64,000 nt of DNA from Bacilli bacterium (GTDB lineage Bacteria > Bacillota_I > Bacilli_A > RFN20 > CAG-826). The stretch is taken from assembly GCA_024409055.1 (NCBI GenBank), contig JAKSUL010000001.1, positions 36,490 through 100,489 of the forward strand. The letters are read 5' to 3'. Below, in pieces: positions 26,837-35,711 of this stretch. The position numbers and the translations under genes are program-made. Every line of letters begins with the position of its first letter. Position 1 is the first letter of the stretch. Under the pieces are notes generated by a model. That model did no database searches and was not told where the DNA came from. It saw only the letters and a program-made list of their open reading frames with translations.

Positions 26837-27961
26837 TTAGATAGAGGCGGCGACTGATAGCGCGGAAAGAAGGCACCAAGTGAGGTTGTAACCACCACAT
26901 GGTCCGTCAACATTTAGCACTTCGCCGACGTAATGAACATTTGGCTCGTCAGCGAAAGAAAGAGACGAAGAAATATCGCCCATTTCAATACCACCGATTG
27001 TCACCTGCGACTGTTCGAACGGATACGTATGGTCAAAATTGAAGGATACGTGCTTCAAATATTGGCCAAGATCGGCTTCATTACGAATCTTTTTGGATAC
27101 ATAGTTTGCAAGCTTTATTGGCAAGATGGAGCGGATGTCCTTCGCAGAAGATATCGCCTTATTGAGCTCTTCGAGTGACAACTCAGGGAATAGATCAAGC
27201 TCGATAGAACAAGAAGAAACGTTATGATGAACGATAAAGGATTCGCAGTTAAAAATAACAATTCCAGAAAGTCCATCGTCTTTAAAAATGACTTCACCTT
27301 CCTCAAAATAAATTTGCTTGCCGTTAGAAATGAGCTTTACTGAAGCCTCGTGCCTAACCCCCGAAATTTCTTTCGTGGACTCTTTGGTTTTAATGGGACA
27401 TAACCCTGGTTTTAATGGGGAAACTTTCCTTCCGTGTTTTTTAAAGACCTCGAACAAGGAACCGTCGCTTCCAAGATTTTTCTGACTCATTCCGCCGGTG
27501 GCAAAAATTATTTTGTCGAATTTCCATTCGCCAGAATCCGTATATAGCACACATGTGTCTTTCGCCGAATAATCGATGACACGTGTGCCTGTTTTTATTT
27601 TCACGCCCAAATCAAAGCACAGTTTCTTTAGATGTTCGACATACGACTCCGCGCTGAAAGATAGCGGGTAGCCCAAATCTCCAATCAGTTTAAGAGGGAC
27701 GCCAAACTCCTCTAGTGTTTTTCTCAAAGATTCAACTCGGTATTTTTCAAAAAATGGGCGAACCAAATCTTCTTGATAATACGACGACGCATTCGCAGAA
27801 AGGTTCAACAAGTTGCAGTGCCCATTTCCGGTCGCTAAAAGTTTTCTTCCAATCTTTTCGTTTTTCTCTATGACCACCACTTCAAAATCAGGATGATTCT
27901 TCTTGATAAGAATGGCGGTGTATAGGCCAGAGGAAGAAGCGCCAACAATACCGATTCTCAT
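26837..27961 (-). CDS. HI0933/BaiN-like FAD-dependent oxidoreductase (aminoacetone-oxidase family flavoprotein)
   Basis: 374 aa; N-terminal GxGxxG dinucleotide fold IGIVGASSSGLYTA…VIEKNEKIGRKLLATGNGHCN. Confidence 0.8.
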   Translation of the reverse strand: MRIGIVGASSSGLYTAILIKKNHPDFEVVVIEKNEKIGRKLLATGNGHCNLLNLSANASSYYQEDLVRPFFEKYRVESLRKTLEEFGVPLKLIGDLGYPLSFSAESYVEHLKKLCFDLGVKIKTGTRVIDYSAKDTCVLYTDSGEWKFDKIIFATGGMSQKNLGSDGSLFEVFKKHGRKVSPLKPGLCPIKTKESTKEISGVRHEASVKLISNGKQIYFEEGEVIFKDDGLSGIVIFNCESFIVHHNVSSCSIELDLFPELSLEELNKAISSAKDIRSILPIKLANYVSKKIRNEADLGQYLKHVSFNFDHTYPFEQSQVTIGGIEMGDISSSLSFADEPNVHYVGEVLNVDGPCGGYNLTWCLLSALSVAASI

Positions 27962-27962
27962 C

Positions 27963-28472
27963 TTATTTCTCCTTATAGTTCACCTTCAGGGTGACTTCGT
28001 CTTGAGCGGCAGGTCCGCCGTCTCTAGGGGCGCATGCGATAACGACTTTGATTGAGGTTCTTTTTCCAAGCATTTCCGGAGTAGCGTGTTTGATCAATAA
28101 AGAGCCCCTTGTCTTGGCGTAAATGTCTTCTGGGTTTAGCTCAACAAATCCGTTTCCTTCAGGAACAACGAATTCGTAGGCGCGGTTCGTAACATTCAGA
28201 GGGAGGATTTCGACCTGAAGAGAGTAGGCGATATACCATTCCCCTTCATATTCGACTTCGGTAAAAAGGTCGCGGTCAAAATAATCCAATTCGATGGTTT
28301 TCACCTTGGTGGTTGGATTAATTGAAGGGTCTTTTCCAAACATCGACTTGATGTTGAGGGATTGGATGTAAATAACTGGCGTGATTCCCTGAGGGACCGC
28401 ACCAATGGTACCGACGACAACAAAAGCCAAAATCGTGAAGACGCCGATAAAAATCAAAAGTCCTTTTTTCAT
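27963..28472 (-). CDS. small exported/membrane-anchored protein
   Basis: 169 aa; N-terminal signal-anchor MKKGLLIFIGVFTILAFVVVG; 4-nt overlap with upstream permease, 2-nt gap to flavoprotein. Confidence 0.55.
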   Translation of the reverse strand: MKKGLLIFIGVFTILAFVVVGTIGAVPQGITPVIYIQSLNIKSMFGKDPSINPTTKVKTIELDYFDRDLFTEVEYEGEWYIAYSLQVEILPLNVTNRAYEFVVPEGNGFVELNPEDIYAKTRGSLLIKHATPEMLGKRTSIKVVIACAPRDGGPAAQDEVTLKVNYKEK

Positions 28473-35249: not shown

Positions 35250-35348
35250 AAGATTCCTTTCTAGATTTTCTTTATAAAAGAAATACTCTAGGCGATACAC
35301 AATAATACAGATACACGCTTTGTGTCAAACTTGGTGAAACAAAAGAGG

Positions 35349-35711
35349 CTATTTCGTCAATTTTTCTATAGCGGAAAATGTCTCGTCAGAGATGGAATGT
35401 TCCATCAAACAGCAGTCTTTTTCGGCAGTTTCAGGAGAAACGCCAATGGAGATTAGGTAGTTTTTCAATACGCAGTGGCGCCTATAGACTTTCTCCGCCA
35501 CTTCTCGTCCGGAGTCGGTGAGTTTCATATCCCCATAATCAACGCGAGTAATAAAACCTTTATCTATCATTTGGTGACCCATCTGATGAACGGCGGGTTT
35601 GCTGATGCCTAACATAGACGCCACTTTGGTCGTCTCAAGTTTTTCGCCGTTTAGTTCAAGCATCAAAAGCGCTTCGAGAAAATCTTCAGTGGCCCTATTG
35701 TCTTTTTTCAT
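35349..35711 (-). CDS. DtxR/MntR-family metal-dependent transcriptional regulator
   Basis: about 120 aa from MKKDNRATEDFLEALLMLELNG…VASMLGISKPAVHQMGHQMIDKGFI (wHTH) plus metal-binding/dimerisation region; divergent to feoA. Confidence 0.8.
   Translation of the reverse strand: MKKDNRATEDFLEALLMLELNGEKLETTKVASMLGISKPAVHQMGHQMIDKGFITRVDYGDMKLTDSGREVAEKVYRRHCVLKNYLISIGVSPETAEKDCCLMEHSISDETFSAIEKLTK

Follow-up and report, generated by a model that had tools for sequence, protein, structure and literature searches.

A conserved four-gene envelope cassette with a YwaF/TMEM164 domain fused to an ABC ATPase in uncultured gut Bacilli and Clostridia

The window analysed in this work is a stretch of 64,000 nucleotides (nt) from contig JAKSUL010000001.1 of a metagenome-assembled genome labelled 'Bacilli bacterium', whose locus tags begin with MJ239_. 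In it five minus-strand genes, here called g1 to g5, follow one another beside a gene for a DtxR-family regulator and the feo genes. We found that four of them, g1 to g4, are the functional unit: a cassette encoding a lipoprotein with a beta-helix domain (g1), a YwaF/TMEM164 membrane domain fused to an ATP-binding cassette (ABC) ATPase (g2), a permease-like protein (g3) and a small signal-anchored protein (g4), whereas g5, which encodes a flavoprotein, and the dtxR and feo genes are lineage-specific neighbours. The composition of the cassette and its conservation are firm. As for its role we tentatively propose, with a confidence that stays below even, a single envelope machine in which an ATP-driven exporter and an acyl transfer on the outer side of the membrane are coupled and act together with the surface beta-helix lipoprotein.

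Conservation of the cassette

The gene context was read around homologues of g2 and g3 in metagenome contigs and in 80 species-representative genome loci, and profile hidden Markov models of the module proteins were run against all the open reading frames (ORFs) of the loci. The 80 genome loci were found with an alignment of the g2 N-terminal domain, after which at least 455 species genomes turned out to hold a relative of this domain; the best 80 were inspected, and the remainder may include unfused YwaF genes. A scan of genome contigs with g3 alone found nothing, while the alignment-based scan with the g2 N-terminal domain succeeded; a search for contigs encoding the g3 of the window itself returned a single NCBI contig of 1.7 kb.

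All four genes were adjacent and on one strand in 70 of the 86 non-duplicate loci carrying the fusion gene, which come from gut and rumen metagenome-assembled genomes (MAGs) of Bacilli and Clostridia/Christensenellales, and for each of the 16 exceptions the cause is that the contig ends or that a gene is split. Between the lipoprotein and the fusion gene the median gap is 9 nt, between fusion and permease, and also between permease and small protein, it is -4 nt, and between small protein and lipoprotein it is 63 nt. The lipoprotein gene comes first in 38 loci (labelled Bacilli, Bacillales, 'Mollicutes' or Candidatus Enteromonas) and last in 32 (labelled Clostridia or Christensenella); it has moved between the Bacilli and the Clostridia types, yet remained attached to the other three.

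An initial annotation of the window, made from the sequence, had taken g1 to g5 as a single five-gene unit. In the window genome they do form one tightly packed unit of transcription and translation, with the ORF positions, the junctions and the gene products described there, but only g1 to g4 travel together, g5 being absent from the cassette in all the 86 related loci. Operons often have tight gene junctions; what goes beyond chance in this case is the block conservation of the four genes, not the tight junctions themselves. Start/stop coupling has limits as evidence: read in a single genome, it made the functional unit one gene too large.

The genes around the cassette were clustered for 84 loci, and no flanking family occurred in more than seven of them, hence the flanks give no clue to function. 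A known defence system was also considered and discarded, since PADLOC gave only generic similarity to ABC ATPases.

Some variation among the cassettes was observed. Several Clostridia-type cassettes and locus L009 have an extra gene for a membrane protein of ~150-160 amino acids (aa) just upstream of the fusion gene (L006, 7130-7579; L009, 7371-7859; also L061, L067, L071, L074, L075, L080 and L085). Cassette contigs were present in bins titled Sodaliphilus sp., Parasutterella excrementihominis, Bacteroides uniformis, Escherichia coli and Alistipes shahii (L017, L025, L031, L035, L051); these 'cleanbin' public records are probably mislabelled or mis-binned, and many titles of MAG contig records carry obviously wrong organism names.

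The g2 fusion protein

The membrane part of g2 matches the Pfam family TMEM164 (PF14808) with 56.7 bits against a cut-off of 25, over aa 338-527 and profile positions 5-193 of 217, and NCBI labels the protein as 'YwaF family protein'. Overall, ~13 hydrophobic helices are followed by an ABC_tran match (Pfam E 8e-24, aa 635-777); the domain layout is given in Table 1. The initial annotation was right about the fusion of a membrane domain with an ABC ATPase and missed the YwaF/TMEM164 identity of the former, which is the most informative feature of the locus. All the 65 protein clusters retrieved with aa 1-600 of g2 combine TMEM164 with ABC_tran, and so do all the 80 genome loci kept from the scan. 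In public records the fusion goes under two names only, 'YwaF family protein' or 'ABC-2 type transport system ATP-binding protein'. Homologues of the fusion protein share 38-60% identity, while those of g1 are much more divergent (22-43%).

TMEM164, YwaF, YpjA, AIG1 and GPC1 constitute the ATGY superfamily of lipid acyltransferases and hydrolases with six transmembrane (TM) segments (bioRxiv 10.1101/2022.07.06.498872). The hallmark of this superfamily is a Cys, Ser or Thr nucleophile on core helix 2 together with an invariant His on core helix 4 (bioRxiv 10.1101/2022.07.06.498872; PMC12830759), and the cryo-electron microscopy of TMEM164 revealed an acyl-Cys123 thioester intermediate with His181 alongside (PMC12830759). 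We modelled aa 1-600 of g2 with AlphaFold2 (AF2) from an alignment of 52 sequences (predicted local distance difference test 82.8; predicted template modelling score 0.81), and the model contains the six-TM core fold of the superfamily. Precisely, C400 lies at the start of helix 399-413, which is core helix 2, and H457 in helix 448-469, which is core helix 4. Both residues are invariant in 79/79 fusion homologues, as are H398 (motif PLH[IL]CN, together with C400), R340, R475 and P476. In the model C400 and H457 thus take the places of the ATGY-type nucleophile on core TM2 and of the His on core TM4, and we consider them a candidate catalytic dyad.

The helical extension that precedes the core (aa 1-336) is variable among homologues and gave no structural match. 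A second YwaF domain hidden in it was rejected, as hhalign between aa 150-336 and aa 337-580 returned a probability of 0.8%, and neither the single sequence nor the profile of the g2 N-terminal domain retrieved anything useful from the PDB. Bacilli-type fusion proteins are ~50-70 aa longer at the N-terminus. The g2 of the window has, in addition, an insertion of ~56 aa (32300-32500, aa ~100-160) with an extra hydrophobic helix, modelled by AF2 at low confidence and present in 0/15 aligned homologues.

The ATPase motifs are invariant in 79/79 homologues (Walker A GKNGAGKST, signature YSHGMKQK, Walker B ILDEP with E775, and H807), and because of this invariance the domain is under selection to stay active. 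Its best NCBIfam matches are DrrA (3e-57), GldA (7e-56), the lantibiotic-protection ATPase (3e-41) and NodI (9e-39). All of the bit scores fall below the cut-offs: 194 vs 312 for DrrA, 190 vs 403 for GldA, 133 vs 549 for NodI, 123 vs 240 for LptB and 141 vs 310 for galliderm_ABC. With scores so far below the equivalog cut-offs, g2 was not assigned to the named DrrA, NodI or GldA systems.

Since the ATPase must be cytoplasmic, the topology of g2 can be set by counting the helices back from helix 551-599, which leads into the ATPase. The helices met in this way in the AF2 model are 478-505, 448-469, 416-435, 399-413 and 362-380, so that the loops 358-367 (RFDKLHRR) and 470-479 (GRPKIK) are predicted to face inward and the loops 381-398, 436-447 and 506-550 outward. 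Lys and Arg residues lie in the loops predicted inside, as the positive-inside rule prescribes. With this topology core helix 2 has C400 predicted at its outer end, and H457 would lie ~9 residues deep in core helix 4, counted from its outer end; from this placement, the active site would serve the outer leaflet.

The permease, the lipoprotein and the anchor protein

The g3 protein has 12 hydrophobic segments and matches no NCBIfam model and no Pfam family (not PF16949 even at E up to 1). Eight of its 16 aligned homologues match PF16949 (ABC_tran_2), with a best E of 1.7e-12, and the orthologue of locus L009 matches both PF16949 and 12TM_1 (PF09847). On these family matches g3 would be a divergent 12-TM member of the Pfam ABC_tran_2/12TM_1 group; a PDB search with the g3 profile gave no sequence relative. 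The residues D114, P122, P228, P305, G382 and P423 are kept in 78/78 homologues. Each half of the protein has a conserved loop, predicted cytoplasmic, between its second and third helices: loop 1, YFAPDNKILITFP, contains D114 and P122, and loop 2, YSSEGDAFNLTRTYP (YSSEGD...YP), contains S410, G413 and P423. We infer that the two loops are the coupling elements for two ATPase domains, and on this reading the complex would consist of two g2 and one g3.

The N-terminus of g1, MEKKTLRILSVSALLAVTGTLAAC, contains the lipobox LAAC with Cys24 (codon 35178-35180), and the lipobox Cys is kept in 64/65 homologues. Then a Ser/Thr-rich linker and tandem immunoglobulin (Ig)-like domains (~aa 50-290) follow. 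The right-handed parallel beta-helix comes next (~aa 340-600), and the protein ends with an alpha/beta region. The lipoprotein with a beta-helix-like surface domain proposed in the initial annotation was therefore found, with the tandem Ig-like domains in addition. No Pfam or NCBIfam model matched g1, and a sequence search of the PDB gave nothing useful. D378, H433 and K489, kept in 61-63 of 65 homologues, fall in three successive coils, each on the first strand or immediately ahead of it; this placement is consistent with a binding or catalytic groove, without being proof of it, and by analogy the arrangement would be that of the substrate grooves in beta-helix carbohydrate enzymes. Two tandem lipoprotein paralogues stand upstream of the fusion gene in L012 (2479-7815), and the lipoprotein is much longer (1158-1302 aa) in several other loci (L010, L054, L062-L064). 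Because of these duplicated or lengthened forms, we regard the surface component as the variable part of the cassette.

The g4 protein has one TM segment (aa 5-23) and no Pfam or NCBIfam match. Among 1.84 billion representative proteins 34 matched it, most of them with 150-185 aa aligned end to end; six are giant surface proteins whose repeats match g4, and the three that were scanned with Pfam all had Ig_3/PKD repeats. Since the matching repeats are of this kind, g4 can be described, at the level of sequence similarity, as one extracytoplasmic Ig/PKD-like domain on an N-terminal signal anchor. A g4 homologue follows the permease gene in every locus whose contig extends that far; across the cassettes this small protein has ~160 aa, and the lipoprotein ~800 aa.

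Proposed mechanism and alternative explanations

In the machine that we propose, two g2 copies would provide two ATPase domains docking on the two cytoplasmic loops of g3, to give an ABC-2-type exporter, and a long rigid helix would tie each ATPase to a YwaF/TMEM164 (ATGY) domain, whose Cys400/His457 site would be positioned toward the outer leaflet. Outside the membrane, the machine would consist of the beta-helix protein g1, held by its lipid anchor, and of g4, the anchor protein with the Ig-like domain. Energy from ATP hydrolysis would bring either an amphiphilic component of the envelope or an acyl donor linked to a lipid to the outer leaflet, and the most likely candidates for this cargo are a glycolipid and a lipid-linked glycan; the fused enzyme would add or remove an acyl chain through a Cys400 thioester intermediate, and g1, assisted by g4, would bind or process the product on the groove side of its beta-helix. 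A narrower form, which we consider possible and rather unlikely, is that the ABC transporter hands a lipid-linked donor or acceptor to the fused ATGY enzyme, and that the beta-helix lipoprotein, or a glycan bound by it, is lipidated or remodelled.

Several points weigh against this proposal. The outward orientation is a prediction from the modelled helices and the positive-inside rule only, and core helix 2 has just 15 residues in the AF2 model. That g2 and g3 touch g1 and g4 is an assumption, and the substrate, the donor and the acceptor are all hypothetical. By sequence g1 matches no carbohydrate-enzyme family, and its conserved residues are mostly Gly, Asn or aromatic and may be structural only; no glycan-synthesis gene is conserved beside the cassette in the 84 loci clustered. 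Finally, the ATGY superfamily includes hydrolases (AIG1), and by analogy with them the reaction could be a deacylation.

Two other explanations keep some weight. In the first, which we judge unlikely, nothing is transported: as in NosDFY, ATP hydrolysis by g2 and g3 would move the docked g1, switching a surface activity or passing a ligand, and the YwaF domain would only remodel the nearby lipid or anchor the complex. However, NosD is just 60th among the generic beta-helix matches, g1 has no Pfam NosD or Beta_helix match, neither nosZ nor nosL is found in the conserved neighbourhood, and a purely mechanical role gives no reason for a Cys/His dyad that is invariant in all the 79 fusions.

The second is a dedicated lipoprotein maturation, also improbable in our estimate, in which the outward YwaF domain N-acylates or transacylates the Cys24 anchor of g1 in place of Lnt, Lit or LhaT, while the ABC part extracts, positions or releases the modified g1, as LolCDE does. 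The constancy of the lipobox Cys, the g1 gene that is always adjacent, and the position predicted by the model for C400, near the outer leaflet where lipoprotein anchors are located, are consistent with it. Lnt itself forms a Cys thioester acyl-enzyme and uses a phospholipid donor. Among the ATGY enzymes, LhaT modifies lipoprotein N-termini at the outer face (PMC12345273). Nevertheless, the known modifying enzymes serve lipoproteins in general and their genes do not stand next to that of one client, g2 is in the YwaF branch and not in the YpjA/DUF1405 one, g3 matches no Pfam or NCBIfam model, those of MacB/LolC-type permeases included, and neither the conserved beta-helix residues nor g4 would have a role.

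An efflux pump for resistance or immunity, of the ABC-2 type that acts on lantibiotics, bacitracin or drugs, with functionally unrelated surface proteins beside it, would agree with the resemblance of the ATPase to DrrA and to the lantibiotic-protection ATPases. We consider it very unlikely, as none of these matches comes near its equivalog cut-off, the conserved neighbourhood has no genes for bacteriocins, sensor kinases or regulators, and the strict linkage of the four genes, the acyltransferase fusion and the invariant dyad would be left unexplained.

Organisation of the locus and neighbouring genes

The coordinates of the features are reported in Table 1. As read from the sequence, g1 and g2 share 1 nt in TAATG at 32796, g2 and g3 are joined as TAA-TT-ATG, g3 and g4 overlap by the 4 nt of ATGA at 28469-28472, and g4 and g5 are joined as TAA-G-ATG, with a gap of 1 nt. 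Ribosome-binding sites of AAGGA type precede g1, g3, g4 and g5. For g1 the ATG is the most likely start, and the NCBI annotation has the same 817-aa protein (P0087).

Table 1. Features of the g1-g5 region, in positions of the window
Feature	Position	Strand	Description
g1	32796-35249	minus	817 aa from ATG; the longest ORF starts with GTG at 35300
g2	30193-32796	minus	867 aa; helical membrane extension aa 1-336, YwaF/TMEM164 (ATGY) core aa 337-575, long connecting helix, ABC ATPase aa 617-867
YwaF/TMEM164 six-helix core of g2	31072-31788	minus	Predicted; from AF2 helix boundaries and conserved residues
ABC ATPase domain of g2	30196-30948	minus	ABC-2/DrrA-GldA-NodI-like type
Candidate catalytic residues of g2	31597-31599 (C400); 31426-31428 (H457)		H398 and C400 in PLHICN; H457
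g3	28469-30190	minus	573 aa
g4	27963-28472	minus	169 aa
g5	26837-27961	minus	374 aa
Promoter-like site	35328->35299	minus	TTGACA-18-TATTGT, from consensus scan, upstream of g1
AT-rich palindrome	35265-35284		20 bp, ATTTCTTTTATAAAGAAAAT (minus-strand letters), between the promoter-like site and the g1 ribosome-binding site
DtxR/MntR-family regulator	35349-35711	minus	Pfam Fe_dep_repress and Fe_dep_repr_C (E 1e-14)

The initial annotation also gave the operon its own promoter near 35300-35330. A TTGACA-18-TATTGT site is present there; nonetheless, the consensus scan found 13 promoter-like sites across the region against 14.7 expected, and because such sites occur at chance frequency the g1 promoter is plausible, not demonstrated. 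A TTGACA-type site, read by eye from the sequences, is also upstream of the lipoprotein gene in close relatives. The palindrome that follows the promoter-like site may act as an operator or be no more than AT-rich leader sequence. With Rfam, used at gathering thresholds, zero matches were obtained over the whole window, hence no riboswitch or leader RNA was found.

The g5 product scores above the cut-offs of HI0933_like (Pfam E 2e-45, 155 vs 50 bits) and TIGR00275 (242.3 vs 183.8 bits), and by these profiles it is a genuine flavin adenine dinucleotide flavoprotein of the HI0933/TIGR00275 (aminoacetone-oxidase) family, outside the conserved cassette. An orthologue occurs only in the three closest relatives (L002, L003 and L007), 4 kb downstream; in L002 and L007 the orthologues, 45% identical, sit behind a 228-aa gene, a CitMHS gene and glnA. 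The lineage of the window probably lost these three genes, so bringing g5 beside g4.

The regulator scores 84 bits with NCBIfam MntR, below the cut-off of 153. It adjoins the cassette in 3/88 loci (two near-duplicates counted), which are again L002, L003 and L007, all close relatives; FeoB is near the cassette in these and in L030 and L051. The feoB of the window was confirmed indirectly, by its 33% identity to the Pfam-annotated FeoB of L002. The stop codon of feoB is overlapped by a 66-aa ORF (38316-38516, plus strand) with one TM helix and a Cys-rich tail, CNCGSG...HQCCCN, which looks like a FeoB-associated Cys-rich membrane protein and is probably the gene initially annotated as feoC-like.

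The least probable explanation, to which we give hardly any credit, extends what was first suggested for the locus to a five-gene operon under DtxR metal control whose flavoprotein and transporter handle a redox-active or metal-linked substrate: g5 does start 1 nt after g4 with its own ribosome-binding site, and dtxR, 100 bp upstream in the same orientation and separated by no terminator-like site, precedes the cassette in close relatives too, but g5 is outside the cassette in all other loci (4 kb away in the closest relatives), DtxR is seldom adjacent, ~400 bp and a separate promoter-like site lie between dtxR and the lipoprotein gene in close relatives, and the palindrome is unlike a DtxR-type operator, as far as can be said with no consensus search made. 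In the 100-bp gap upstream of g1 we saw only this AT-rich palindrome and no DtxR-type operator, again with no search for a DtxR/MntR consensus; for this reason, and for the 3/88 adjacency, membership in a DtxR regulon was set aside as improbable. The hint at metal-dependent control or at a redox substrate finds no support beyond adjacency, and the DtxR/feo synteny is limited to close relatives.

Other features of the window were noted. Directly downstream of g5 there is a 336-aa polytopic membrane protein (25711-26721, minus strand) with no Pfam or NCBIfam match, conserved in L002 at a syntenic position with 34% identity. A compact queuosine salvage/synthesis cluster (QueT transporter, TGT, QueA, QueH) lies 4 kb downstream of the region, at 19281-22731 on the minus strand. 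Two adjacent large ORFs on the minus strand, 44321-45601 (426 aa) and 45650-47806 (718 aa), have no Pfam match at E up to 1e-5 and stand among sugar-nucleotide and glycosyltransferase genes. The segment 9500-19100 is the ribosomal-protein (S10/spc) operon, with a G+C content of ~54% vs ~44% elsewhere and a strongly negative AT skew; this high-GC stretch, with ORFs on both strands, had seemed odd, and its many long antisense ORFs are spurious.

Significance and comparison with known systems

Each part of the cassette belongs to a known family or fold. The combination, as the initial annotation had supposed, could not be matched to a characterised system through NCBIfam equivalogs, sequence relatives in the PDB or the literature. 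Literature searches on YwaF, TMEM164-like and permease families returned the TMEM164 and LhaT papers only; no paper or curated model was found for a function of bacterial YwaF, for a YwaF-ABC fusion, for a characterised member of ABC_tran_2/12TM_1 or for the four-gene cassette.

If the narrower form of our proposal, in which the transporter hands its cargo directly to the fused ATGY enzyme, is true, it would give the first function for a bacterial YwaF-family domain and the first described fusion of an ABC ATPase with a membrane acyltransferase, as far as our searches reach, in abundant uncultured Firmicutes of the human and animal gut. The cassette is common: many species-level genomes of Bacilli and Christensenellales, uncultured and from gut or rumen, have it, and among them are MAGs with Hadza and Nepal samples in their record titles. 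YwaF proteins are the prokaryotic relatives of human TMEM164, a ferroptosis-linked ether-lipid acyltransferase, and a YwaF domain fused to an ATPase, with three specific partner genes, is a concrete system in which to look for the role of the family. Should the cassette modify lipoproteins or glycolipids, the products could be ligands of host receptors such as TLR2.

The ABC-2 exporters (Wzm/Wzt, TarGH, NodIJ, DrrAB, GldAFG) resemble the cassette in that the g2 ATPase is nearest to DrrA, GldA and NodI and in that relatives of g3 fall in a Pfam family annotated as putative ABC exporters. They differ in that g3 is a fused 12-TM protein with no solved relative and the g2 ATPase has a membrane enzyme of 600 aa at its N-terminal side.

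NosY is a six-TM protein acting as a dimer, while g3 is a single 12-TM chain. NosDFY has no acyltransferase, and g1 has no sequence relationship to NosD, being a lipoprotein with Ig-like domains. The likeness is that NosDFY is an ABC-2 transporter working with a periplasmic beta-helix protein, NosD (PDB 7o0y). Membership in this system was rejected, since g1 has no Pfam NosD match and no nos genes are conserved nearby. Lnt/LolCDE was likewise rejected, g2 and g3 having no Pfam or NCBIfam match to CN-hydrolase Lnt or to MacB-type proteins and g3 having 12 hydrophobic segments.

From TMEM164 and YwaF, g2 differs by the 336-aa N-terminal helical extension, in which neither an internal duplication nor a structural match was found, and by the C-terminal ABC ATPase, a fusion not described in the ATGY literature that we found. 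TMEM164 acts in eukaryotic ether-lipid remodelling, and no bacterial YwaF protein has a known function.

The closest precedent is LhaT (YpjA) of Bacillus subtilis, an outer-face lipoprotein N-acetyltransferase that uses a lipid-linked donor, with a flippase not yet identified (PMC12345273). LhaT is of the DUF1405/YpjA branch, whereas g2 matches only the TMEM164/YwaF model; the DUF1405 family was rejected for g2, since, besides two ATPase-domain models, TMEM164 was its sole Pfam match at E up to 0.01. Unlike g2, LhaT is a stand-alone six-TM protein that serves all lipoproteins, has no ATPase fusion and is not encoded beside a particular lipoprotein. Both belong to the ATGY superfamily, however, and LhaT, which needs a lipid-linked donor that is flipped outward, offers a precedent for an ATGY enzyme that works with a flippase; the cassette bears on the question, raised by the LhaT study, of how an acyl donor reaches an enzyme at the outer face.

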